The translations under genes were made by a program, and so were the position numbers. Positions 22,594-49,582 of a stretch of DNA of 64,000 nt are shown piece after piece. Source of the DNA: Deferribacterales bacterium Deferri_01 (GTDB lineage: Bacteria; Chrysiogenota; Deferribacteres; Deferribacterales; Geovibrionaceae); contig LUZY01000013.1 in the NCBI GenBank assembly GCA_001603805.1, positions 348,723 to 412,722 of the forward strand, in the 5' to 3' direction. The first letter of the stretch is position 1. Each line of letters begins with the position of its first letter. The notes below the pieces were generated by a model, which made no database searches, had not been told where the DNA came from, and saw only the letters and a list, made by a program, of their open reading frames with translations.

Positions 22594-24681
22594 CTATTTT
22601 GATTTAAGGGTATATACCCCATCCCAATCTTCTTCAGGAGGGTTCTCAAGGAAATCAGCGCATCTTTCAGCGAAAATTCCCGAAGGTCCGTCAGAAAATT
22701 TTTCCGCTAAATCACGGAAAACCGCAAGTGCTTCATTGAAATTCATGTTGAAGTATTTATCAAGGGCTTTTTCAAAAAGCTCCTTGATCTCTCTGTTTTC
22801 GGGTGTGTCTGTCATTGGCTCGAATATTTCCACAGGCTTGTGTTTGCCTTTTACACGCACTTTATCCAAAAGACGGCAGAGAACAGGAATAGTGAGTCTG
22901 TTCATTGTAAACTCACTGATCACTATTCTTGTTTTGTACTGTTTGCAGAGCCCCTCAAGGCGGGAGGCAAGGTTAACGCTGTCGCCTATGGCAGTGTACT
23001 CAAAACGCACCTTTGAACCCATGTTCCCCACAACAACTGTTCCGGTGTTTACTCCCACACCTATGTCAACAACAGGAATACCCTCTTTTGCGAACTCAGC
23101 ATTAACCGCTTTAAGAGTTTCAAGCAGCTCAAGGGCGCTTTTTACAGCCTTGTCGGGATGATCAGGAACATCAACAGGTGTATTGAAAACAGCCATCATC
23201 GCATCGCCTATATATTTATCCAGCATGCCTCTGTTTTTGAGAATAACGTTTGTCATCGGGTCAAGAAGTCTGTTCAACATTGAAACAAGGGCGGTAGGAG
23301 TCAGGCTTTCAGACAGGGTGGTGAATCCCCTTATATCAGAAAACAGGATAGTCAGATCCCTTTCCTGTCCGCCAAGCTCAAGACCATCGGGATTATTGAG
23401 AATTTCCTCCACAAGTTCCGGTGAAACATATGAGCCGAAAGCTTTTTTAACTTCAAGAGCGTGGATCTCTGTTTTAAAGAAGGCGGCAGCTTCTGTCCCC
23501 ACAATCATCAAGACTGCAGGGAAAAGAGCGTAAAACTCACGCAGCCAGATATTTCCGTATATGAAAAAAACATATGAAACGCAGACAACAGCCATGAGAG
23601 CGAAGATGTAAAGCAACCACCGCAAATACTGCTTTCCTATGAGGCTTAAAGCGGCAATGATAAGCAGCACAGGAATAATAAGCATATAGTCCCAAGCTTT
23701 ATTCCATTTAATGAGGTGCCCCTCAAGGAGATTGCTTATTGCAGTGTAATGCAGCGAAACACCGGGAGTAATGGGGCTTATGGGAGTGGGACGCATGTCG
23801 TAAACCCCTGTCTCCGTAACACCGACCACGACTATTTTATTTTCAAAAAACTCTGGCGCAACCGCACCGGAATATACATCATACGCAGAAATATATTTAA
23901 CATCGTCATAGAAATTCAGCTTAAAATAACTCTGCTTGTTGAATACGATATTCCCCAGAGCGAATTTTCTCACCCCGTTTTTATCAAGTTCAAGCTCCAC
24001 ATCCTGATTGAGATAGTACCGCAGAGCCTGAATTCCCAGCGGAGAAAACAGATAACCTTTATGGATGTATGTTATGGGATAGCGCCTGTAAAGTCCGTCT
24101 ACGTCTGCCTCTGTGTTGAAATAGGCGCATGTCAGCCCGCTGTGGGCTATTTCATCAATATTGACTTCAGCAAAGGGAAATTCCTTAACCCCTGTGGTGT
24201 TATCAAGCATTTTAAAGGAGAGATAAGCGCAATCCTCAAGGGCATCAATGGTGTCCTCAGTTGTTTCCTGCGTTGCATTGTCCCTCATGAAGAAGCCGAG
24301 AATAATGTTGTCGGAATCGAGTATTTTTTCTGCCAGATAATCGTCACGTTCCGGCTCTGTATGCTCAGAAAAAACAATATCCAGAGTTACTATTCCCGCA
24401 TTGCGGAGATTGAAGAACATATCTCCGATAACATCTCTGCGCCATGGCCATCTTCCCAGCTTGTTTACGCTGTATTCATCCACGGTAACTATGACCATAT
24501 CCTGATAAGGTTTAGGAGTTTTACCTATAAGAGAGCGGAAATGAAACTTGCCGTCTTCTATTCCCAAAGCGAATTTATCGATAAAAGAAGGCTGAAAGTG
24601 GAAAAGAACTGTGGCAAATATAAGAAAACCGGCAAGAAGCCCGAATTTATAATTCTTTAAAAAAGAGGGTATAAACTTCAT
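22594..24681 (-). CDS. CHASE2 sensor domain-containing class III adenylate/guanylate cyclase
   Basis: N-terminal TM, a periplasmic CHASE2-like region and three further TM helices, then a cyclase domain (LTILFSDIRGFTTLSE...GDAMMAVF...GVNTGTVVVGNMGS). Confidence 0.85.
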   Translation of the reverse strand: MKFIPSFLKNYKFGLLAGFLIFATVLFHFQPSFIDKFALGIEDGKFHFRSLIGKTPKPYQDMVIVTVDEYSVNKLGRWPWRRDVIGDMFFNLRNAGIVTLDIVFSEHTEPERDDYLAEKILDSDNIILGFFMRDNATQETTEDTIDALEDCAYLSFKMLDNTTGVKEFPFAEVNIDEIAHSGLTCAYFNTEADVDGLYRRYPITYIHKGYLFSPLGIQALRYYLNQDVELELDKNGVRKFALGNIVFNKQSYFKLNFYDDVKYISAYDVYSGAVAPEFFENKIVVVGVTETGVYDMRPTPISPITPGVSLHYTAISNLLEGHLIKWNKAWDYMLIIPVLLIIAALSLIGKQYLRWLLYIFALMAVVCVSYVFFIYGNIWLREFYALFPAVLMIVGTEAAAFFKTEIHALEVKKAFGSYVSPELVEEILNNPDGLELGGQERDLTILFSDIRGFTTLSESLTPTALVSMLNRLLDPMTNVILKNRGMLDKYIGDAMMAVFNTPVDVPDHPDKAVKSALELLETLKAVNAEFAKEGIPVVDIGVGVNTGTVVVGNMGSKVRFEYTAIGDSVNLASRLEGLCKQYKTRIVISEFTMNRLTIPVLCRLLDKVRVKGKHKPVEIFEPMTDTPENREIKELFEKALDKYFNMNFNEALAVFRDLAEKFSDGPSGIFAERCADFLENPPEEDWDGVYTLKSK

Positions 24682-24703: not shown

Positions 24704-25807
24704 TTATTGAGGAGATACAATTATTTCATAATCAGAGAATTTTTCTACCTTAAACCCTGATCTTCCGTTAAGAGACGTAGCAAGATAAAGAGTTTTTTCA
24801 GGATATGTCACCACAAGGGAATCCACACCCTGATCTTTGACCTCAAGAACCCAGCTTGTGTAAGTCAGCATCTGTTTAAGCTGCATAAGCCTGTCCATAT
24901 CCGTTTTGCCCATGAGACGCACAGTCACCATTCTGCTGTTTGCTCCCTGCATTTTTTCCATCACGATTCCCACAAGGGTCGCAGAAACAGAATCACGCAG
25001 GTTTTCGGTCATTCTGAATGTGGCGTCTTCTATTGTGGAGCCCTGCCCTCTCACCGGAATATATCCGCTGGCGAGGATCACACGGTTTCCATATTTTTCA
25101 GTTATAAGCCTGTAGGTAAGTCTGCCTGTGACCACATTGAAAGGCAGTGAAACGCCATAGCCTATATCTGCTCCCTGCTGGGCTGTGGCAGTGGTTTCAA
25201 CTTTGCCGATGAGGATTGTGTTTGAAAGATTTTTAAACGCAGCATTGCGCAGAGCAAGGTAGTCATTGGACTTCATTGCCTTTTCAAGCTCTTTTACACC
25301 AAAGCCGTTTCCGCCCGCCATATCCACAACTTCCATATTACGTGAAGTAAGTTCATTTATAACATTCTCTGAAAGTGCGCTGGATTCCTCAACTTTTCCG
25401 TTAGGAAACACTACAGGCAGCATCACAGAAATAGTTGTGTTTTTAGAAACAATGCCCACTGCACTTTCGGCTTTTGTTTTCTCAACAGTGGCAGAAATCT
25501 GAACCCTGTAGATAGAGTCATCCTTCTCCTCTCCTGTCACATTAAAGCTTTTGATAACGCCCTGAACCTCTGTTTTGATAGCCTCATCCACAAGGACAGC
25601 ATTTTGCAGTATAGTATCAGACTTTACTTTGACTCCTGCTGCTTCCTCAAGAGCTGCCCATTTTGCTCTGGCAATGGCGATTGTTCTTGCGGAGGCGGTA
25701 TCACCGCCCATTATATCAGCTTCGCCAACAGCACTTACCTTTACAGGCTGGGCATAAACAGCCGTACACATAAAAGCTGAAATAAGCAGAATAATCAGTT
25801 TTTTCAT
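24704..25807 (-). CDS. Secreted protein with an N-terminal LPP20/FlgP-like domain
   Basis: Signal peptide MKKLIILLISAFMCTAVYA. The LPP20/FlgP-type pattern is VSAVGEADIMGGDTASARTIAIARAKWAALEEAAGVKV. 367 aa, 22-bp gap to the cyclase gene. Confidence 0.5.
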   Translation of the reverse strand: MKKLIILLISAFMCTAVYAQPVKVSAVGEADIMGGDTASARTIAIARAKWAALEEAAGVKVKSDTILQNAVLVDEAIKTEVQGVIKSFNVTGEEKDDSIYRVQISATVEKTKAESAVGIVSKNTTISVMLPVVFPNGKVEESSALSENVINELTSRNMEVVDMAGGNGFGVKELEKAMKSNDYLALRNAAFKNLSNTILIGKVETTATAQQGADIGYGVSLPFNVVTGRLTYRLITEKYGNRVILASGYIPVRGQGSTIEDATFRMTENLRDSVSATLVGIVMEKMQGANSRMVTVRLMGKTDMDRLMQLKQMLTYTSWVLEVKDQGVDSLVVTYPEKTLYLATSLNGRSGFKVEKFSDYEIIVSPQ

Positions 25808-25827
25808 AGAAACCTCGTTAAATCAGT

Positions 25828-26553
25828 TTATTTAAGAAACGTAAATACAATTTTAACATCCGCATCTGACCCAAGGAGTTTTTTAAGCTCTTCCGATGCG
25901 GTTTTACCAAGATAAACATCTGTATAGGAAACTACTCTCTCCGCATTCAGAGACAGAGGCTTTCGCCTGCCTTCCTGAAAAAGCATGGTGACAGCATCCG
26001 GCAGATCTGCAACATAAACCGGGTGGGAAAATGTTCTGTTCCAAAGCTCATTACCGTCAGCAGAATAAAGTCTGTTTCCCAAAGCCGGAACAAAGCTTCC
26101 TATTGCTGTATTAATTATAACAGAATCATACTCTGCGAAGCTTCCGTTATCATAAGCCTCCGGCGCGGACAAGGTTCTTCCTGCCAGAACATCAAGAGGA
26201 TCAATCCTTCCTGATAGACAATAATAACCTTTTTTACTTTCTTTGTCGTATATTCCTTTGCCTTTACAGGAAGAAAGAGAGGAAAGAAGCTCTCTGAAAA
26301 CCTGCTCGGATTCATTATCAAATAATGCTGTATCTTCAAGGGTTCTAACTCCGCTTACGGGGAGATCGGATAAAACAGCATGAGCCTTTTCTTCTGCCTC
26401 GATCCTTGCCCTTGTGAGGGCATCGCCCATCTGCAATCCTTCTGCGGATTCGCCTATAACAGTTATTTTTCCGCTGTTGAGAATGTCAATATAGCTCAAT
26501 GTCTCCTGCGGGAAAAAGCTGTCAGCTCCGTAAGAACAGACAGAAAGCGCCAT
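25828..26553 (-). CDS. Hypothetical protein with an LPP20/FlgP-like segment. The N-terminus is uncertain.
   Basis: VIGESAEGLQMGDALTRARIEAEEKAHAVL resembles the LPP20 family. There is no clear signal peptide from the annotated ATG. The in-frame upstream stretch ...IRPKLTVLFFLMALSVC looks signal-like but contains no canonical start codon. Confidence 0.4.
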   Translation of the reverse strand: MALSVCSYGADSFFPQETLSYIDILNSGKITVIGESAEGLQMGDALTRARIEAEEKAHAVLSDLPVSGVRTLEDTALFDNESEQVFRELLSSLSSCKGKGIYDKESKKGYYCLSGRIDPLDVLAGRTLSAPEAYDNGSFAEYDSVIINTAIGSFVPALGNRLYSADGNELWNRTFSHPVYVADLPDAVTMLFQEGRRKPLSLNAERVVSYTDVYLGKTASEELKKLLGSDADVKIVFTFLK

Positions 26554-26749
26554 AAGAAAAAAGAGAACCGTAAGCTTAGGTCGTATAGCAGATCTCCTCA
26601 GGATGTTTTATTGATTTTAGCTTTGATAAAAGGACTTAACAAGGTAAAAAACACATAAAAAAGAACGAAAGGAGGGTTGAGGTTTTTAAGGTGGTATGCG
26701 GGAATAAACGCATCCGGCAAATTAAATAATTTACCGGATGCAAAAAAGA

Positions 26750-27952
26750 TTAAAACATTTTCTTAAACATGCTCTGTCCTTCAAGCTTCTGACGCTTGAT
26801 GATAGAGCCGTTTTTAACTCTTGAAACGGCTGCCGGGTCGCCGTCAATTTTTGCCCAGGCCTGATCCTGAGCTATCTGATCAGAAATTGTCAGTTCTACA
26901 GGTATCTTAGCCATATTGCATGATTTCTGCCCTGAAAAAGGATCAGCAATCTCGATAAACTCATAAACTTCAAGTTTTTCACCTGAGTTCACACCAGCAT
27001 CGCTTCCCATATTCACAAGAGCCAGTGCCTTGTTGCCTCTGAGCTGTTTGATATATCCTTTGGGAGAAAATCTCTGAGAGAGAGTCGGCTTAACATCGTC
27101 AATGGCTTCGCCCATGGCTTTTTTAGCTGCTTCGGCTATGAGTTCAGGGTTAAGCCCCTGTCCGCCGCCTGCAACTTCACGTCCTTTGACTTTGTTATTA
27201 ACGATAACCTGACCTGTCTCAACATCGATCATTTTCACTGTCATCTCGACATTGACTATCCAGCCGGACTGTGTGTTGGCAGCAGCTTTTCCAACAGCAA
27301 GGGCAAGGTTAAACCATGCGTTTCCGGTATCGGATGTTTTATTATTGTTAGGCGGAACGTACTTAGCGCTGATGCTGTCAACGGTGCCTGCGAAAACATA
27401 CTGAACACCGGCGAGTTTACCTGCACGCACCGCAGTATTCGGGTCAGCTATCGCCATCTGAAACTTTTGTTCGCTGAGTATGCTTTCAAGACTTGAGCGG
27501 TCAAATATACTCATACCGCCAATGTTAGCCACAATATTTTCAGTAGCAGACTGGGCATATTCGCCTATTTTGGGAGCAACTTCCCTCATGTAGGTATCAA
27601 CCTGACCTGAAGATGTTACATCAGTTTTTGAAGCGCCTACATGCCCAACACCCACTGCTCCGGGAGCTACCACAACTCCGGCAACGCCTGCGCTTGTGCG
27701 TTTGGTCGTTGATTTGCCGGCAAAGCTGGTATTTGATGCTGACATTTTTCCGTATGATGTGTTATTGACGAACTGAGCAACAGCAACTCTGGGAACGTCG
27801 AATTTGTAAAAAGATTTGCATACTTCGGGGATAACCACCATCTCAGCATCCGCAGATGTTACCTGAGACGCCATAGGATCAACTTTGGGTCCCCCTCCTG
27901 TGCATCCTGCGATCGCAGCAACCGCAAGAGCAGTTAAAAATAACTTTCTCAT
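26750..27952 (-). CDS. CsgG-family outer-membrane lipoprotein (curli-secretion-channel-like)
   Basis: Lipobox AIAGC. CsgG-like motifs PRVAVAQFVNNTSYG and DRSSLESILSEQKFQ. The start was taken at the ATG preceded by a GAGGTG ribosome-binding site. The track ORF begins two codons earlier at a GTG. Confidence 0.7.
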   Translation of the reverse strand: MRKLFLTALAVAAIAGCTGGGPKVDPMASQVTSADAEMVVIPEVCKSFYKFDVPRVAVAQFVNNTSYGKMSASNTSFAGKSTTKRTSAGVAGVVVAPGAVGVGHVGASKTDVTSSGQVDTYMREVAPKIGEYAQSATENIVANIGGMSIFDRSSLESILSEQKFQMAIADPNTAVRAGKLAGVQYVFAGTVDSISAKYVPPNNNKTSDTGNAWFNLALAVGKAAANTQSGWIVNVEMTVKMIDVETGQVIVNNKVKGREVAGGGQGLNPELIAEAAKKAMGEAIDDVKPTLSQRFSPKGYIKQLRGNKALALVNMGSDAGVNSGEKLEVYEFIEIADPFSGQKSCNMAKIPVELTISDQIAQDQAWAKIDGDPAAVSRVKNGSIIKRQKLEGQSMFKKMF

Positions 27953-28030
27953 CACCACACCTCAATTGAGTAATTACAAATCTTAACATATTTATTTTTT
28001 TTTGAGGACTTATAATATTAGGCAAATAAA

Positions 28031-41105: not shown

Positions 41106-41543
41106 ATGGCAATTGTAAGATGGGATCCGCTTAAAGACCTGATGGCCATGCACGACAGAATCAACAAGATGTTCAATGACTCCTTCGACAAACAAAGCTC
41201 ACCGGCATATGGTGAATGGATGCCCCCGGTGGACATATATGAAACGGAGGATGAAATTGTCGTAATCTCTGAACTGCCCGGAATAGACGAAAATGATGTG
41301 GATATCCAGGTAGCTGAAGGAGTGCTGACCCTTAAGGGTGAAAAAAAATATCCTGTTGACAGAGAATCGGACAATTACTACAGACTTGAACGTGCATACG
41401 GAAAATTCCAGCGTTCATTCGCTGTACCGAACACCATAGATATGAATTCAATAAAGGCGAATCTGAAAGACGGTGTGCTTAAAATTATCCTGAAAAAGCG
41501 TGCGGAAATAAAACCCACGGTAATAAAGGTTGAGACCGAGTAA
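41106..41543 (+). CDS. Hsp20/alpha-crystallin small heat-shock protein
   Basis: Alpha-crystallin domain (WMPPVDIYETEDEIVVISELPG..., AYGKFQRSFAVP). RBS GGAGG. Confidence 0.9.
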   Translation: MAIVRWDPLKDLMAMHDRINKMFNDSFDKQSSPAYGEWMPPVDIYETEDEIVVISELPGIDENDVDIQVAEGVLTLKGEKKYPVDRESDNYYRLERAYGKFQRSFAVPNTIDMNSIKANLKDGVLKIILKKRAEIKPTVIKVETE

Positions 41544-41570
41544 GCACCGCTTAAAAAACGAAGGTGAAAA

Positions 41571-42674
41571 ATGGCTAAAGACTACTACGAAGAGCTGGGC
41601 GTCGGGCGTGGCGCAACCGCTGATGAAATAAAAAAGGCATACAGAAAACTTGCCCGCAAGTATCACCCTGACGTTAACCCGGGTGATAAAACAGCAGAAG
41701 ACAGGTTTAAGAAGATCTCCGAGGCTTACGGCGTTCTCAGTAATGAGGAAAAACGCAAACAGTACGACTCAGTGGGACACGATGCCTTTGTATCCGGCGG
41801 TCAGGGGTATGACTTCTCCGGCGCTAATTTTGACGATATCAGAAACACCTTCGGCGGCGGCTTCGACTTTGACGATATATTCGGCGACCTTTTCGGCGGC
41901 GGCAGACGTTCAGCCGGCAGAAACAGAGTGATGCGCGGTGATGATCTCTACTACAACGTACGCATACCTTTTTATGATGTAATACACGGCAACGAATACG
42001 AACTGAACATCAACCACACTGTGACCTGCTCTGTATGCGGCGGTAAAGGCGGCGAAAAAAAAGCATGCCCAACATGCGGAGGAACAGGTCAGTCCTCACG
42101 CAATAAGGGCGGATTTTTTGTGGGCAGCGTATGTACAAGCTGCGGAGGTTCCGGTCAGGTTACTGTTAAGCAGTGCGGTACATGCCACGGCAAAGGGCAT
42201 GTGGAAAGCAAAGAACGAATCAAAGTGCGCATCCCTAAAGGCGTGGATAAGAATTCAAAAATACGTGTTCCCGGCAAAGGCAACGCAGGTGTAAACGGCG
42301 GAGCATCCGGTGACTTATATATTGTCACCAATGTTCAGGATCACCCTGTGTACAGACGTGAAGGTGATAATCTCTATGTTGATGTGGAGATGGACATGTT
42401 TGAAGCGGCACTCGGTGCAAAGATCGAAGCCCCTACTCCATACGGAGCTGTAACGCTGAATATACCCGCAGGTACACAGTCTGGACAGAAATTCAGGCTG
42501 AAAAACAAAGGTGTTCCAATGCTGAAAGGCAGCGGAACAGGAGATCTTTACCTTGTAATAAATGTTAAAATTCCTTCTGTTGCTTATGAAGCTGACAGGG
42601 AAGCTCTCAGGGAAATGATGCAGAAATACGCAACGAGCGCACGGGAAGATCTTTTAAAAAAAGGCAAGATATAA
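41571..42674 (+). CDS. dnaJ: Chaperone DnaJ
   Basis: J-domain with HPD (KDYYEELGV...YHPDVNP), a G/F region and four CxxCxGxG zinc-finger repeats. Confidence 0.9.
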
Positions 42675-42725
42675 AACATCCGGTTTCCTGAAAAGAATAT
42701 TTAAGGAACCTCAGCAAGGTGACAT

Positions 42726-43106
42726 ATGGCAAATAAACCTCTGTATGTAATAAGCATAGTATCGGAAATGCTGGAACTTCATCCGCAGACACTGCGCCAG
42801 TATGAACGTATGGGGCTTGTAACCCCTTCCCGCACAGTGGGAAATACAAGGCTTTACTCCGATGAGGATATTGAAAGGCTAAAGTTTATAATGACCCTCT
42901 CAAAAGACATGGGAGTAAACCTTGCGGGAATTGAAATTATTCTGAACATGCGTGAGCAGATAGAAACACTCCACGCCCAGCTCGAGGGCATGAAAGAATA
43001 TGTCCGGCAGCGTATGGGCGAGGAGATGAAGGCAAAAGAGGCGGAAAAGGCTCTGATTCCCTCTCCGCCGAAAGAAATAATTAAAATAAAAATCGAAAAA
43101 GAATAA
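42726..43106 (+). CDS. hspR: MerR-family heat-shock repressor HspR
   Basis: MerR-type HTH (YVISIVSEMLELHPQTLRQYERMGLVTPSRTVGNTRLYSDEDIERLKFI). It lies in the conserved dnaJ-hspR-clpB arrangement. Confidence 0.85.
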   Translation: MANKPLYVISIVSEMLELHPQTLRQYERMGLVTPSRTVGNTRLYSDEDIERLKFIMTLSKDMGVNLAGIEIILNMREQIETLHAQLEGMKEYVRQRMGEEMKAKEAEKALIPSPPKEIIKIKIEKE

Positions 43107-43129
43107 GCCTCACAAGGAGGTAACATACA

Positions 43130-45736
43130 ATGATTAACTTCAACAAAATGACTATAAAAGCGCAGGAGGCAGCAGAGCAGGCTCTTGCCCTCGCCTCTGA
43201 AAAAAATCAGCAGCAGATAGAGCCCGAACACTTTCTTATTGCCCTTTTAAAACAGGAGGACGGGCTTGTGAAGCCTCTTCTTCAGAAGGCAGGCGTCAAT
43301 GTGAATGCTCTGGAAGCAGGCACAGATGATATCATAAACTCCCTTCCCACTGTCAGCGGTTCGGGTCAGCAGTATTTCTCTCCTGACTGCAACAAGGCAC
43401 TGGAAAAGGCATTTAAAATAATAAAAGACTTCGGGGACGAGTATGTCTCTACTGAACATATTCTCCTCGGTATAATTGATAACGCAGGCTACAGACTGCG
43501 CACCCTGCTTTCTCAGACAGGAGCGGATAAGAAAGCCGTGGAAAAGGCGATAAAGGAAGTCAGAGGTTCAGCCAAGGTTACAGACCAGAACCCTGAAGGC
43601 AAAATGAACGCCATAGAGAAATACACAATCAACCTTACAAACCTTGCCAGAGAAGGCAAACTTGATCCCGTTATAGGACGTGATGAGGAAATAAGGCGTG
43701 TTGTGCATGTTCTCTCCCGCAGGACAAAAAACAACCCCGTTCTGATAGGCGAACCGGGTGTCGGCAAAACTGCCATTGTTGAAGGACTGGCGCACAGAAT
43801 AGTAAACGGCGATGTGCCGGACTCCCTGAAAGATAAAACAGTAGCATCCCTTGACATGGGTGCGCTTATCGCAGGAACAAAATTCAGGGGCGAATTTGAA
43901 GAGAGACTTAAAGCCATCCTCACCCAGATAAGAGAAAAGGAAGGCGAAATAATACTCTTTATAGACGAAATGCACACTCTTGTGGGTGCTGGTGCGGCAG
44001 AAGGAGCGATGGACGCTGCTAATCTTCTCAAACCCGCTCTGGCGAGGGGCGATCTGCACTGTATAGGCGCAACAACCCTTGATGAATACAAAAAACATAT
44101 TGAAAAAGATGCCGCCCTTGAAAGACGTTTTCAGCCTGTAATGGTTAAGGAGCCCAGCGTTGAGGATACCGTTTCAATACTGAGAGGACTCAAGGAAAAA
44201 TATGAGGTTCACCACGGGGTGCGTATAAAAGACTCTGCACTTGTGGCGGCTGCTCATTTGGCAAAGAAATACATAAGCGACCGCTTTATGCCCGATAAAG
44301 CCATAGACCTTATTGATGAAGCCACAGCAAAACTGAGGATGGAGATAGACAGCCTCCCCACAGAGCTTGATGAAACAGAACGTAAGATCACACAGCTTGA
44401 AATAGAAAAACAGGCACTTAAACGTGAGTCTGACAATGTGAGTAAAAACCGCTTGGTCAAACTTGAGGAAGAGCTTGCAAATATCAAGTCTGAGGCTGAC
44501 AGACTCAGAGCCCACTGGAGCAACGAAAAAGGACTTATCAAAAAGTCCAGAGAGATAAAAGAGCATATAGAAGAGGAAAAGCATCAAATGCAGAAGGCCG
44601 AGCGTGAAGGAAACTTCGCCCTCGCCTCAGAAATAAAATACAGCAGGCTTGTCCAGCTTGATAAAGAACTTGAAGAGGCTAACGCAAAACTCGCCGAAAT
44701 TCAGAGCGGTAAAAAAATGCTCAAAGAGGAAGTGGACGAGGAAGACATAGCCGCTATAGTTTCCAAATGGACAGGAATACCTGTGACCAAACTCATGCAG
44801 GAAGAAGCCGACAAGCTCATCAACATGGAAGACTACCTCCACAAAAGGGTCATAGGACAGGACAGAGCAATAAAAGCAGTGAGTGAAGCAGTCCGCAGAA
44901 ACAGAGCCGGTCTGGGCGACCCGAACAGACCCATTGGTTCATTCATATTCCTTGGACCCACTGGCGTCGGTAAAACGGAGCTGGCAAAGGCACTTGCGGA
45001 GTTTATGTTTGACTCGGAAGATGCGATGATCCGCATAGATATGAGTGAGTACATGGAGAAACACGCAGTAGCAAAGCTTATCGGAGCGCCTCCCGGATAT
45101 GTGGGGTATGATGAAGGCGGACAGCTTACTGAAAGAGTACGCCGCAAACCATACGCTGTCATACTCATGGACGAGATAGAAAAAGCGCATCCGGATGTTT
45201 TTAACATACTGCTCCAGATGCTTGATGACGGCAGGCTCACAGATTCCAAAGGCAGAACTGTAAGCTTTAAAAACTGTGTAGTAATAATGACATCAAACAT
45301 CGCATCGCAGGAGATACAGGAAGAATTCGCCAAGGAAAGCTCTATGGAACAGAAATATATGTTCATAGATAACGTGGTGATGAACAGGCTTTCATCATTC
45401 TTTAAACCGGAGTTTCTTAACAGGCTGGATGATATTATTGTATTCCACCCTCTTAATAAGGAACATCTTTATAATATTGCAGAAATGCTTATGAGAGATT
45501 TTGCTGCAAGAATGCGTGAAAATTCTGTTGAACTTGTCTGGGATGATTCTGTCATTATAGAAATAGTAAAAGCAGGTTTTGATCCTGCTTTCGGCGCCAG
45601 ACCCATGAAAAGAGCCATAAGGAAACTTGTGGAAAACAAACTGGCGGAAGCACTTATAAAAGGTGACATAAAAGCAGAACAGAAAATAAAACTGACCTAT
45701 GGTCAAACCGGCATGAACTTCAGTACAACCTCCTGA
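43130..45736 (+). CDS. clpB: Chaperone ClpB (Hsp100 disaggregase)
   Basis: Two AAA+ modules (GEPGVGKT and GPTGVGKTE), a long coiled-coil middle domain and the Clp N-domain. 868 aa. Confidence 0.95.
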
Positions 45737-45768: not shown

Positions 45769-45878
45769 TATTCATGAAAAAAGCTTTTATAAATAAACCA
45801 TATACAGAAATGTTTTTTGTTTCAAAATATGGTATATTTGATATACTTCTTAAGTTATATAAGGGTTGAGAGTTGAAA

Positions 45879-46817
45879 ATGGATCATGAACTTGACGACC
45901 TTCAGGAAGAGCAGGAAGAAACCGAAGAAACGGAAAGCACTGCTGAATCTGCAGAGGTTGAAGAAGTAATTCACAATGACGCCCCGCCTCCTGTGAGTGA
46001 AAACACGCTGAAGCATTATCTTAACAGCATCAGCAAATACAAACCGATGACAAAAGAGCAGGAGTTTGTGATAGGGGAAAGAATACAAAAGGGCGATAAA
46101 GATGCTCTTAATACTCTTATACTCTCAAATCTCAAATTTGTTGTTTCAATCGCAAACCGCTACAGGAACACTGGTTTACCTATTTCTGATCTGATAAATC
46201 AAGGCAATTTAGGACTTGTGGAGGCGGCAAAACGCTTCGACCATACCAAAGGAGTAAAATTCATCTCCTATGCAGTATGGTGGATACGCCAGGCTATCAT
46301 TCAGGCTCTGGCGGAACAGTCGGGAACAGTGAAGCTGCCTATTAAACAGGCAGGGATATTATACAAAATAAACGGTGCCATAGAAAAACTCAGCAAACAG
46401 CTCGGGCGTGAGGCTACAAACAGCGAGCTTGCCGAATATCTCGGCATGGAAGAACCGGACATTGAAAATGTTCTGCGTGTTTCAAGAAACTATCTGTCAC
46501 TTGAAGCACCAATAAAAGACGGAGAAGACCGTTCTTTTATAGATCTCCTTGAATCAGGTTCTAAAAGTATAGAAGAAGATATAATCTCCAAAACCCTTAA
46601 ACAGGCTCTTGGTGACATTATTGATGAGCTTACCGAGCGTGAGGCAAAGATTATAGAGCTTCGTTTCGGCATAGAAGGTGATGCGCCGAAAACTCTGGAA
46701 GAAATAGGCGATATGCTTAAAATAAGCCGTGAGCGAGTGCGCCAGCTTGAGGCTAGAGCATTATCAAAACTCCGCAAGAAAGCCATGCGGAAAAAACTCC
46801 ACGACTTTTTAAACTAA
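45879..46817 (+). CDS. Sigma-70 family RNA polymerase sigma factor (group 2/3, RpoS/RpoH-like size) with an acidic N-terminus
   Basis: Region 2 (FISYAVWWIRQAI), region 3 and region 4.2 HTH (TLEEIGDMLKISRERVRQLEARALSKLR). ATG start chosen (MDHELDD). The track ORF begins at a TTG two codons upstream. Confidence 0.8.
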   Translation: MDHELDDLQEEQEETEETESTAESAEVEEVIHNDAPPPVSENTLKHYLNSISKYKPMTKEQEFVIGERIQKGDKDALNTLILSNLKFVVSIANRYRNTGLPISDLINQGNLGLVEAAKRFDHTKGVKFISYAVWWIRQAIIQALAEQSGTVKLPIKQAGILYKINGAIEKLSKQLGREATNSELAEYLGMEEPDIENVLRVSRNYLSLEAPIKDGEDRSFIDLLESGSKSIEEDIISKTLKQALGDIIDELTEREAKIIELRFGIEGDAPKTLEEIGDMLKISRERVRQLEARALSKLRKKAMRKKLHDFLN

Positions 46818-46865: not shown

Positions 46866-48134
46866 TTAATTGAATACGTTACCAATACGCACTTCCTCAG
46901 CTTCCCATTCGGCAGGTTCGCTTGAGCCTAAGTTTCTCTCTATACCGATTACAGAACCGTAAAATGAAAGAGTCTGGTCCTCGAACTCGTAATTAAGAGC
47001 AATCATCTCTATATTCTCTTCATTATCATCAATATATTTTCCAAAAAACAGAATACTGTCTTCTCTTGTATCTATAAAACCTTTGAAAGTATCATCCCCT
47101 TCGGTGAGTGTAACGTTGCAGCCATCCTGCACAATAGTCACTGTGCCGTTGTCTTCCTCTATTTCAGTAGGGTCATTGCTGCTTATAATGCGAGAAATGA
47201 AAGGCATATCTGTAACAGAGAGGTCAACACTTGAGCATGAGGGATCTTCGGGGTTAGCCCCTACAGCACGTTTCATGGTTGCTGTTGCAGTGCATGAGCC
47301 GTCCTTGGGTGAAAAAGTCATAAGAAACTCACTGGAATCCGTGTATTCCATAGACATATTATATTCAGGCATACCCGTCTCAGTATATTGACGAAGAACA
47401 GCGGAATTAGGATCAGTCAGGTTTCCTGAAAAGAAGTCAATGTTCTCAATCACCTGTTTCACTGAGGCTGAAGACAAGCCGGAAGGAAGAGTGGATGGTT
47501 GCTTTGAATAGTTTGCAGAAATGGTGTAAAGGTTAACTGAGCCTCCGGTTAAATAAGCTATGAATCTTTCAGTTGTGTTATCCTCACCATCGCACACAAT
47601 ATTAACTTCGGCAGCATATACACCGTAAAGTGCATCGGAGTTCATATTGCCTATTGCCACATCCTCGTCTATGAGGTTGAGAGTGTCAAAGCTGCCAGCA
47701 AAATCGTCAAGCTCTGTTTCCTCAGTCACAAGACCGTTAATGTCATCCACAGCCGTTTCATTCATTATAAGAGTACCGTTATCCACCGAGCTGAGAGTCT
47801 GGATAAGTCTGGCAATAAGAACAGCATTGTTATGATCTGTTATATCAAAGGGGGTGATATAAGTAGCAGCGGGCGCACTTCCCAGAACAAGATTGCCTAT
47901 TCTGAAAGTTACAGTATCGCCTTCATTGAACAGGAATTTGCCTTCCGCATCGGTAAAGCCTGAATACCCGCTGGGTGAAGTGGAATAAGCTATGCCCGCC
48001 ACAGGTGCATCAACAAAAATACCTGTTGATGAAGGGGCGGATGGTTCACTGCTGCTACTGCTGCTTCCGCCGCAGCCGTAAATAAAGAGTGATAAAAGCA
48101 TAGCACTGAGTGCCGTTAAGATTATTTTGTGCAT
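46866..48134 (-). CDS. Lipoprotein, paralogue A of the tandem pair (CarboxypepD_reg-like N-terminal beta-sandwich motif)
   Basis: Signal peptide and lipobox (LLSLFIYGCGGSSSSSSEPS). TDAEGKFLFNEGDTVTFRIGNLVLG motif. ATG start 6 nt after GGAGGT. The track ORF begins at an upstream GTG. Confidence 0.7.
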   Translation of the reverse strand: MHKIILTALSAMLLSLFIYGCGGSSSSSSEPSAPSSTGIFVDAPVAGIAYSTSPSGYSGFTDAEGKFLFNEGDTVTFRIGNLVLGSAPAATYITPFDITDHNNAVLIARLIQTLSSVDNGTLIMNETAVDDINGLVTEETELDDFAGSFDTLNLIDEDVAIGNMNSDALYGVYAAEVNIVCDGEDNTTERFIAYLTGGSVNLYTISANYSKQPSTLPSGLSSASVKQVIENIDFFSGNLTDPNSAVLRQYTETGMPEYNMSMEYTDSSEFLMTFSPKDGSCTATATMKRAVGANPEDPSCSSVDLSVTDMPFISRIISSNDPTEIEEDNGTVTIVQDGCNVTLTEGDDTFKGFIDTREDSILFFGKYIDDNEENIEMIALNYEFEDQTLSFYGSVIGIERNLGSSEPAEWEAEEVRIGNVFN

Positions 48135-48175
48135 AAGCACACCTCCGCAGAAATTATAATCATTTCCAATATTTA

Positions 48176-48284: not shown

Positions 48285-49541
48285 CTAATCTACAGGAAAG
48301 TAAATATCGACTTCCTCTATTGACCATTCAGCAGGTTCATTTGAGTTTAAGTTTTTTACTACTCCCATCACTTCTCCTTCAAACTCAGGATACAAATGTG
48401 TTACATTGTAGTCCATAGTAATCGTTTCAATATTCTCTTCATTATCTTCAGTATAGGTTCCGATTAATAAAATCCTTTCAGCTTGAGTATCTACAAAACC
48501 GGTAAAAGTGTCGTTCCCTTCTGTAAGAGTTACATTGCAGCCATCCTGCACAATTGAGACTGTTCCGTTATCCTTATTAAGCAGATTCTCTGAATTACTG
48601 CTGCCAATTATAATGGACCTGAAAGGAATGTTTGCTACAGATACATCAACGCTTGAGCATGTGGGATCATCAGAATTGGCACCTAAGACACGTACCATGT
48701 CCGCAGTTGCAGTGCAGGAACCGTCGCTGGATGAAAGAGTCATTTGAAACTCGCTGGAATCGGTATACTCCATAGACATATTGTATTCAGGCATATCCGC
48801 TTCTGTATATTGATGAAGCACTGCAGAATTAGAATCTGTTAACTCTCCTGAGAAGAAATCAAAACTATCTATAGTTCTTATGCCAGAAGGAGATGATAAG
48901 CTGTTGAAACCATTCAACCTATGTTCTATTGCATAAATTTTTACCTTTCCAGCACTGATAACAACACCGAACTCTCCTGTTACATTGTCTTCACCTTCAC
49001 AAACAACAGTAGCAAGACCGGAATAAGCTCCGTAAAGAGCATCTCCATTCATATTTCCTATTGCCACATCCTCGTTTATAAGATTGAGGGTATCAAAACT
49101 CCCTGCAAAATCGTCAAGCTCTGTTTCCTCTGTCACAAGACCGTTAATGTCATCCACGGCTGTTTCATTCATTACAAGAGTGCCGTTATCCTCCGAGCTG
49201 AGGGTCTGGATAAGTCTGGCAACAAGAACAGCGTTTGTTCGGTCTGTTATGTCAAAGGGTGTGATATAACTAGCCGCAGGCGCACTTCCCAGAACAAGAT
49301 TACCTATCTTGAAAGTTACCGTATCGCCTTCATTGAACAGGAATTTACCTTCCGCATCGGTAAAGCCTGAATACCCGCTGGGTGAAGTGGAATAAGCTAT
49401 GCCCGCCACAGGTGCATCAACAAAAACACCTGTTGATGAGGGGGCGGATGGTTCACTGCTGCTACTGCTGCTTCCGCCGCAGCCGTAAATAAAGAGTGAT
49501 AAAAGCATAGCACTGAGTGCCGTTAAGATTATTTTGTGCAT
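48285..49541 (-). CDS. Lipoprotein, paralogue B of the tandem pair
   Basis: The N-terminal 160 aa or so are near-identical to paralogue A (same lipobox and leader, nucleotide-level identity). The central region is divergent and the C-terminal motifs are shared (NGTV.IVQDGCNVTLTEG.DTF). Confidence 0.7.
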   Translation of the reverse strand: MHKIILTALSAMLLSLFIYGCGGSSSSSSEPSAPSSTGVFVDAPVAGIAYSTSPSGYSGFTDAEGKFLFNEGDTVTFKIGNLVLGSAPAASYITPFDITDRTNAVLVARLIQTLSSEDNGTLVMNETAVDDINGLVTEETELDDFAGSFDTLNLINEDVAIGNMNGDALYGAYSGLATVVCEGEDNVTGEFGVVISAGKVKIYAIEHRLNGFNSLSSPSGIRTIDSFDFFSGELTDSNSAVLHQYTEADMPEYNMSMEYTDSSEFQMTLSSSDGSCTATADMVRVLGANSDDPTCSSVDVSVANIPFRSIIIGSSNSENLLNKDNGTVSIVQDGCNVTLTEGNDTFTGFVDTQAERILLIGTYTEDNEENIETITMDYNVTHLYPEFEGEVMGVVKNLNSNEPAEWSIEEVDIYFPVD

Positions 49542-49582
49542 AAGCACACCTCCGCAGAAATTATAATTATTTCCAATATTTA

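Follow-up and report, generated by a model that had tools for sequence, protein, structure and literature searches.

What do three consecutive genes build when the first encodes a lipoprotein with CsgG-type motifs and the other two encode exported proteins with segments that resemble components of flagellar outer rings? The genes, here called G1, G2 and G3, lie on the minus strand of a 64-kb stretch of contig LUZY01000013.1 of the Deferribacterota genome Deferri_01 (the whole stretch analysed is referred to as the window), and they are followed by G4, whose product joins a CHASE2 sensor to an adenylate/guanylate cyclase of class III (Table 1). The original prediction, made without database searches, took the set for a putative outer-membrane secretion or assembly apparatus with a CsgG-type secretion channel and an unknown cargo. 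The reading that we favour, tentatively, is that G1 to G3 form an outer-membrane-anchored periplasmic ring or scaffold module of the FlgT/FlgP type, which in this lineage is coupled to the CHASE2 cyclase.

In this proposal, a lipid anchor would fix G1 to the outer membrane on its inner side, and G1 would oligomerise via its CsgG/FlgT_M/PelC-type domain, with its FlgT_C-type beta-barrel pointing into the periplasm. G2 and G3 would be Sec-exported, non-lipidated periplasmic proteins, whose FlgP-type N-domains, together with the TolB_N-type second domain of G3, would add layers to the assembly. In other phyla, a lipoprotein with an SLH domain would tie the assembly to the cell wall. In this lineage the module would instead be transcribed together with the CHASE2 cyclase and so be functionally coupled to cyclic AMP or cyclic GMP (cAMP/cGMP) signalling, and the assembly could be either what the periplasmic CHASE2 domain monitors or a product made alongside the sensor. 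Such a module would be distinct from a curli-type secretion system. Ring formation, the interaction of G1, G2 and G3, the cell-wall link and the contact with CHASE2 are steps that we infer; the genes themselves, their export signals, domain homologies, co-conservation, operon signals and the recurrence of cyclic-nucleotide genes are observed and are described below.

The three minus-strand open reading frames are present at the coordinates that had been predicted, as are the spacers of 196 bp (G1–G2) and 20 bp (G2–G3). The locus has been recovered in six independent metagenome or metagenome-assembled genome (MAG) assemblies, and its nearest named relatives are Geovibrio thiophilus, Limisalsivibrio and Denitrovibrio. 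Against two related species, with synonymous sites saturated, the ratios of nonsynonymous to synonymous substitution rates (dN/dS) are 0.04-0.06 for G1, 0.09-0.10 for G2, 0.03 for G3 and 0.03-0.04 for G4. These low values (0.03-0.10) show that all four are functional genes under strong purifying selection, and the ratio of G2 rules out that it is a pseudogene.

G1 is a lipoprotein, as had been read from its lipobox AIAGC. Its N-terminus is MRKLFLTALAVAAIAGC, and the cysteine that follows AIAG in the lipobox is near-invariant in 20 homologues. An alternative GTG start at 27958 would give a protein of 402 amino acids (aa), two more than the ATG at 27952, which is the better placed of the two, 5 nt after GAGGTG, and gives the version present in public collections. 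The expected family match was also obtained, since the Pfam CsgG profile (PF03783) scores 32.0 bits against G1 (cut-off 20.8, E 9.5e-8), covering only positions 33-152 of the 210 of the profile. Three further Pfam models remain below their cut-offs, namely FlgT_C (19.1 bits against 27, E 0.0018), FlgT_M (14.9 against 31.2) and LpoB. The AlphaFold2 (AF2) model of G1 has an overall predicted local distance difference test (pLDDT) score of 69, and among solved structures Foldseek ranks FlgT first, both as 3W1E (E 6.9e-14) and as part of the Vibrio LPHT ring (1.4e-13), with CsgG (2.2e-5) and PelC (4.1e-5) at a distance. FlgT is thus about nine orders of magnitude closer than CsgG, and the alignment with FlgT covers both its M and C domains. 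Because Foldseek ranks FlgT above CsgG and the CsgG alignment is incomplete, G1 is best described as a lipid-anchored body of the FlgT M+C type, which is a member of the CsgG superfamily and incomplete as a CsgG channel. In addition to the lipobox cysteine, Cys45 (~27820-27818) and Cys345 (~26920-26918) are invariant in all 20 aligned homologues; a disulfide between them would probably tie the N-terminal segment to the C-terminal beta-barrel.

The channel of the original prediction deserves consideration at this point. CsgG itself forms an oligomeric ring associated with the outer membrane, as do FlgT, FlgP, PelC and TraT. In the channel reading, G1 would be a variant CsgG-type outer-membrane channel in which the TM1-like insert and the Gly/Ala/Val-rich insert each give a beta-hairpin to an oligomeric barrel, and G2 and G3 would be periplasmic adaptors or surface-exported cargo, as HfaA and HfaD are for HfaB, or CsgA and CsgB for CsgG. 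We regard this as unlikely. G1 does share with E. coli CsgG (PDB 4UV3/4UV2) a score above the gathering threshold, an N-terminal lipid anchor, the core alpha/beta fold and a Gly-rich insert, of similar composition, at the position of transmembrane hairpin 1 (TM1), with which the insert aligns. Nevertheless, this insert is modelled as a low-confidence helix, both inserts have a pLDDT below 50, and the profile of G1 aligns with E. coli CsgG (in a sequence 100% identical to 4uv3_A) sensibly but without significance in hhalign (E 0.021, probability 2%). A search of PDB sequences with the G1-family profile returned nothing relevant. A distant CsgG-like protein (L040), tried as a bridge to CsgG, proved to consist of an LpoB-like domain and Sel1 repeats. 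The second hairpin, TM2, was not found in G1, where the corresponding loop between strand 5 and helix 3 has 7 residues; the Pfam match ends at profile position 152, compared with 198 in the orthologue of L050, an unassigned metagenome contig, and 209 in E. coli CsgG. The constriction motif Tyr-x3-Asn-Phe after strand 1 was not found in G1 either, and a 57-residue insert stands in its place. To these differences is added the C-terminal beta-barrel, which is extra with respect to CsgG.

The comparison of orthologues bears on both sides of this question. The two inserts appear to have been gained or lost jointly, as they are present in the window, Aquificota and Geomesophilobacter proteins and both missing from those of Nitrospirota, which keep the module all the same; the first of them is kept in Deferribacterota, Aquificota and Geomesophilobacter homologues and missing from the Nitrospirota and L050 ones. 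In L050, where the gene context is shared, the CsgG domain of the orthologue is almost complete (133 bits over profile positions 5-198) and contains both hairpin segments; this protein also passes the FlgT_C cut-off (29.9 against 27). Constant across G1 orthologues are the C-terminal barrel, the ring-type core domain and the partner genes; because these are constant while the hairpin segments vary, an outer-membrane-anchored scaffold is favoured as the conserved function on this comparison of sequences. Furthermore, none of the Pfam families of csgE, csgF, csgA and csgB was found near these genes or in the surroundings of 10 related loci, the folds of G2 and G3 are typical of periplasmic ring lipoproteins and unlike amyloid or adhesin cargo, and some clusters contain a separate gene for a small beta-barrel outer-membrane protein. 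Altogether, the secretion-channel half of the original prediction is poorly supported, being weakened by the partial profile match, the short TM2 loop, the missing constriction motif, the extra barrel, the model closer to FlgT and the insert-free Nitrospirota orthologues, while its other half, an assembly apparatus, is compatible with the evidence.

Other systems built around CsgG-like lipoproteins offer parallels. HfaB is the CsgG-like lipoprotein of the Caulobacter holdfast anchor hfaABD, and it exports HfaA and HfaD. The combination of a CsgG-family lipoprotein with two exported partners recalls this system, and NCBI labels the homologues of G1 'CsgG/HfaB family'; the partners here appear FlgP/FlgT-like, unlike HfaA and HfaD, and no holdfast genes appear to accompany them. 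The label on G1-type proteins should not be equated with 'secretion channel'. The lipoprotein rings of PelC, LpoB and TraT differ in that G1 has additional domains and dedicated partners and lies in neither a pel nor a PBP1b context. In clusters of GNA1162, LPP20 and CsgG-like lipoproteins, such as the Neisseria GNA1162 locus, the same lipoprotein families recur; the window cluster lacks LPP20 proper and GNA1162, and it has an FlgT_C-type domain, the G2 family and the cyclase link.

The second protein to be considered is G3, which has a clean type-I signal peptide, as claimed (MKKLIILLISAFMCTAVYA, cleaved before QP). Its model (pLDDT 75) consists of three domains: an N-domain (residues 22-108) that is FlgP/FlgT_N-like, a middle domain (~123-290) that is TolB_N/CsgG/FlgT_M-like and a C-domain (292-366) that is a small alpha/beta unit unrelated to the FlgT domains. 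Fold matches include FlgT_N, TolB_N, TraT, PelC and Lpp20, which places an LPP20 fold among them, and FlgT is matched over 159 residues. The Pfam FlgT_N model gives 26.3 bits (cut-off 28.8), a cut-off that most G3 homologues pass, and homologues of G3 carry the name 'flagellar assembly protein T N-terminal domain-containing'. The family is large: a search of 1.84 billion representatives gave 699 clusters (50% identity) at E<=1e-10. Searched against solved chains, its profile matches 9hmf_C (E 1.7e-6) and, weakly, Vibrio FlgP; 9hmf_C is a 171-aa chain titled 'putative lipoprotein', which we take to be Campylobacter FlgP.

For G2, only four clusters of close homologues were found, and neither Pfam nor NCBIfam has a family for it or for the G2-like proteins. 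Nonetheless, a profile built from G2-like sequences recovers independent members beside G3 and G1 in Geomesophilobacter (L049, E 1e-60) and L050 (E 5e-78). Its FlgP-like N-domain is followed by a C-domain in which the family motif YDg.IIDa..f.PAL.NRI reads YDSVIINTAIGSFVPALGNRLY. The G2-family profile matches solved FlgP chains (9yfg, E 1.1e-5; 9yec, 1.8e-5; 8z5n_2, 9.7e-5; 9hmf_C, 3.9e-4) and, in hhalign, the N-domain of G3 (probability 82%, E 1e-5); the kinship of the two proteins is visible by profiles only, BLASTP between G2 and G3 not being significant. The original prediction had seen LPP20/FlgP-like segments in both partners. Since the family profiles match solved FlgP chains, these segments are real, whereas Pfam LPP20 (PF02169) itself matched neither G2, G3 nor any of 11 G2-like proteins, and hhalign of the G2 and G3 profiles against a single bona fide LPP20 (from L047) gave nothing. 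Both proteins have type-I cleavage sites, homologues do not conserve the cysteine of the signal peptide, and neither protein is a lipoprotein.

With this domain inventory, it has to be asked whether the module is part of a flagellum, that is, a motor accessory equivalent to the H-ring or basal disk of the polar flagella that Deferribacterota, Aquificota and related groups carry, with the role of FlgT split between G1 and G3 and that of FlgP taken by G2. The Vibrio H-ring (FlgT, FlgP and FlgO; PDB 3W1E, 8Z5N, 9YEF and 9YDS) has the same domains, FlgP/LPP20-type, FlgT_N, TolB_N/CsgG-type FlgT_M and FlgT_C, and is likewise associated with the outer membrane; ring formation is to be expected here too. 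PDB entry titles report ring assembly for TraT, PelC, FlgT and FlgP, and the FlgT and FlgP rings of the V. cholerae motor have been described in a preprint (10.64898/2025.12.02.691832). The structural matches of G1 to the M and C domains of FlgT and of G3 to FlgT over 159 residues, with an FlgT_N-type domain, the matches of both G2 and G3 profiles to FlgP of the Vibrio and (probably) Campylobacter motors, and the TPR and SpoIID-type genes of some clusters, which recall motor scaffolds, all speak for a flagellar role. Moreover, at least Calditerrivibrio, from the same phylum, has a polar flagellum (PMC3072091).

A flagellar role nevertheless seems improbable to us. In five annotated lineages, the +/-10 kb around the cluster contain no flagellar Pfam family, and no flagellar gene was recognised in the window by inspection of the list of open reading frames, which were not run against Pfam; the claim that no curli or flagellar genes lie nearby is thereby borne out, no such Pfam family occurring in the neighbourhood. 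No sigma-28- or sigma-54-like promoter was recognised by eye 5' of G1 or G2, and the conserved promoter is sigma-70-like. All FlgT Pfam models stay below their cut-offs in the window proteins, and the distribution of domains is unlike that of FlgT: G1 holds M and C, the lipid anchor and the two inserts, G3 holds N and a second M-type domain joined to an unrelated C-domain, G2 combines an FlgP-like domain with a novel C-domain, and neither G1 nor G3 has N, M and C in one polypeptide. Unlike FlgP, G2 and G3 are not lipidated. The partners differ as well, being an SLH lipoprotein in other phyla and the CHASE2 cyclase here. Finally, one G3 homologue comes from a MAG of Flexistipes sinusarabici, a species that is not known to be motile.

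Returning to the scaffold module, its distribution is the next line of evidence. A conservation scan with one genome per species yielded 40 loci. In Deferribacterota (L007-L019 and L023), Aquificota (L020-L028, many of them with a longer G3) and Nitrospirota (L029), G1 lies next to G3 in the same orientation; among loci with a full G1 homologue, only L024, at a contig end, and L030 deviate. The pair is also found in Geomesophilobacter (Desulfuromonadota) and on L050. A G2-like gene occupies the same operon position in Denitrovibrio-type MAGs, Deferribacter, an Aquificaceae locus and a Nitrospirota locus, so that the predicted genes are co-conserved in related genomes: four phyla have G1 with G3, and some of these loci also have a G2-like gene. 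One might suspect that the three genes have no function in common and only happen to stand side by side in a long housekeeping array read in one direction. All of ~16.9-31.8 kb of the window is indeed co-oriented, with UDG, coaBC, rpoZ and gmk on the 5' side of the cluster and queC and pfkA on its 3' side, G1 has its own terminator, and G2 is dispensable in several species. The linkage of G1 and G3 is, however, kept across four phyla while every flanking gene changes, and the three proteins share related ring-forming envelope domains, which makes chance adjacency extremely improbable.

A four-gene set of G3, G1, an SLH lipoprotein and a G2-like gene makes up the cluster in Geomesophilobacter, L050, Nitrospirota, Deferribacter and one Aquificaceae locus. 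The SLH lipoprotein, of ~400 aa, has a helical N-terminal part and a C-terminal SLH domain; it aligns over its full length across five loci and is always found inside the cluster. For Desulfuromonadota and Nitrospirota, an SLH protein is an unusual find. The cluster also repeatedly has as neighbours genes for small beta-barrel proteins of the outer membrane, for another CsgG-like lipoprotein, with TPR repeats, and for transglutaminase-like proteins (L029, L049, L050). In addition, the Aquificota cluster L047 contains a true LPP20 gene and a Nitrospirota cluster a GNA1162-like domain. Literature searches on CsgG-like/LPP20/GNA1162 clusters, on SLH and CsgG tethers and on CHASE2 neighbourhoods returned no description of the module. 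The individual families had already been annotated, but these searches brought up no account of the SLH and cyclic-nucleotide associations of the module or of the weak start codon of G2 described below.

The link to cyclic nucleotides begins with G4, for which Pfam gives CHASE2 with 145.7 bits and Guanylate_cyc with 97.5 bits. Such a CHASE2 cyclase lies directly 3' of G3 in every locus of the Geovibrio/Denitrovibrio/Seleniivibrio clade, amounting to ~11 species. In lineages without it downstream, genes related to cyclic nucleoside monophosphates (cNMP) are found on the other side: in Nitrospirota L029 a Crp-type regulator stands immediately 5' of the cluster, preceded by genes for a BrkB-cNMP-binding membrane protein and a cyclase of class III, and L050 has a BrkB-cNMP-binding gene 5' of it. 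Since these genes recur in three separate lineages, their arrangement suggests a functional coupling with the module. We know of no established ligand of CHASE2, and a literature search for one found none.

Between G1 and G2, a hairpin resembling a terminator stands just 3' of the G1 stop codon, and in three related species a hairpin is found at the same place with a different sequence. Beyond it, a 45-nt block that is near-invariant between four species contains a sigma-70-like promoter, and, 5' of its -35 hexamer, ~14 conserved bases that might bind a regulator. Inspection of this block by eye revealed neither a sigma-28 or sigma-54 motif nor a CRP box. The hairpin and the promoter taken together indicate that G2, G3 and G4 probably have a promoter of their own and that G1 may be expressed separately from them.

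Several observations weigh against the scaffold module as we propose it, and the possible separate expression of G1 is one of them. G2 is missing from the cluster in about eight Deferribacterota species, and the SLH gene was found neither in the window nor in the loci of its clade. The cyclase is also tightly packed with the housekeeping genes queC and pfkA downstream, so its adjacency alone is weak evidence for a coupling. The named homologues of the module, members of the G3 family included, are all called 'hypothetical'. With regard to G1, its model is of moderate quality (pLDDT 69) and its two inserts, which are unmodelled, may insert into the membrane or form a pore, and a channel ancestry is plausible in view of the near full-length CsgG domain of the L050 orthologue.

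The start of G2 requires separate treatment. The original prediction had noted a signal-like, in-frame sequence upstream of the only ATG, and this is indeed present: the codons that precede the ATG at 26553 supply the half of the signal peptide that is otherwise lacking, and no ATG, GTG or TTG lies in frame upstream of that ATG. Read from the ATA proposed as the start, the signal peptide is I (or M, if initiated as such) followed by RPKLTVLFFLMALSVCSYG, with cleavage before ADS. A sequencing error in the region 26553-26620, which had been suggested for re-inspection, is refuted, since the stretch from the ribosome-binding site to the ATA is identical in seven independent assemblies. The codon aligned to the ATA is ATA in Geovibrio thiophilus (L051), ATC in L052 and TTG in L007, and a GGAG-type motif precedes the proposed start by 5-7 nt in these three loci as in the window. 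Gene callers place the starts in G. thiophilus and L052 such that the signal peptide is truncated, while the TTG called in L007 gives a full one; more distant G2-like genes have ATG starts and normal signal peptides. We infer that translation of G2 begins at a weak start codon (ATA, ATC or TTG) whose position is conserved, giving a 252-aa precursor. Because the starts are of this kind, the G2 orthologues of the clade are mis-started by gene callers.

Table 1. Positions of the module genes and associated features. Plain numbers are window positions; numbers preceded by an L handle refer to loci in other genomes.
Feature	Position	Strand	Details
G1 lipoprotein	27952..26750	minus	400 aa from ATG; CsgG/FlgT_M-like core and FlgT_C-like beta-barrel
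G1 signal peptide and lipobox	27952..27902	minus	MRKLFLTALAVAAIAG, cleaved before C (Cys17); Shine-Dalgarno sequence GAGGTG 5' of it
G1 insertion 1 (residues 70-126, 57 aa)	27745..27575	minus	Gly/Ala/Val-rich, …SAGVAGVVVAPGAVGVGHVGASKT…; located where CsgG has its constriction loop
G1 insertion 2 (residues 200-229, 30 aa)	27355..27266	minus	equivalent of the CsgG TM1 hairpin, by hhalign and MAFFT against E. coli CsgG
G1 C-terminal beta-barrel (residues ~298-390)	27061..26783	minus	FlgT_C-like; pLDDT 84-91
Terminator-like hairpin just 3' of G1 stop	26742..26709	minus	15-bp stem
Near-invariant 45-nt intergenic block	26656..26612	minus	four-species alignment, synonymous sites saturated
Sigma-70-like promoter inside the 45-nt block	26642..26614	minus	TTGTTA-17-TAAAAT; from sequence
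G2 ribosome-binding site	26599..26594	minus	GAGGAG, 7-nt spacer to ATA; sequence and conservation
G2 proposed start codon	26586..26584	minus	ATA; sequence and conservation
G2 exported protein	26586..25828	minus	252 aa from ATA; 241 aa from ATG at 26553
G2 FlgP-like N-domain	~26472..26203	minus	
G3 exported protein	25807..24704	minus	367 aa
G4 CHASE2 sensor-class III adenylate/guanylate cyclase fusion	24681..22594	minus	695 aa; 22 bp 3' of G3
SLH lipoprotein genes	L028:5503-6705, L029:11293-12564, L048:11222-12436, L049:12478-13689, L050:12379-13587		at least four phyla
cNMP-related flanking genes (Crp-type, BrkB-cNMP-binding)	L029:6025-6738, L029:1329-2549, L050:7874-9076		lineages without a downstream CHASE2 cyclase

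Some further observations were made along the way. Three related loci carry damaged copies of module genes, namely a deletion of ~118 bp in G3 (L004:12146-13131), a split G4 (L006:10259-12182) and a split G3 (L010:12301-13440), which are either natural loss-of-function variants or assembly errors. Elsewhere in the window, two tandem paralogous lipoprotein genes on the minus strand (46866-48140 and 48285-49547) encode proteins of 424 and 420 aa with 72% identity, of which the first ~160 residues are near-identical, including the signal peptide and the lipobox (LFIYGC); this pattern suggests a recent duplication or gene conversion. On the plus strand, positions 41106-45736 hold a heat-shock-like group with Hsp20-like, DnaJ-like, MerR/HspR-like regulator and ClpB-like genes, followed at 45873-46817 by a sigma-70-family factor, all judged by their N-terminal sequences only. 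Scans of the window for tRNA genes and Rfam families gave no match.

A broader scenario can be drawn from the scaffold module, which we consider decidedly speculative and rather improbable as a whole. In it, the module would be a widespread non-flagellar envelope machine of deep-branching diderms (Aquificota, Deferribacterota, Nitrospirota and Desulfuromonadota), a ring made of FlgT/FlgP parts that was ancestrally tied to the cell wall by the SLH lipoprotein. Modules of this type would have given rise to FlgT of the Vibrio H-ring by fusion of a G3-type N-domain to a G1-type M+C body, and here the assembly would be the periplasmic input that an orphan CHASE2 domain reads to set the level of cAMP/cGMP. 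If this is true, ring proteins of the FlgT/FlgP type would represent an older and broader envelope module that extends beyond the flagella of gamma- and epsilonproteobacteria, which would bear on the way in which flagellar motors acquired outer rings. In phyla for which little is known about tethering, it would suggest that an SLH protein links the outer membrane to the cell wall. Given its repeated vicinity to CHASE2 cyclases, Crp-type regulators and cNMP-binding membrane proteins, the module would also be a concrete candidate for what a CHASE2 domain monitors.

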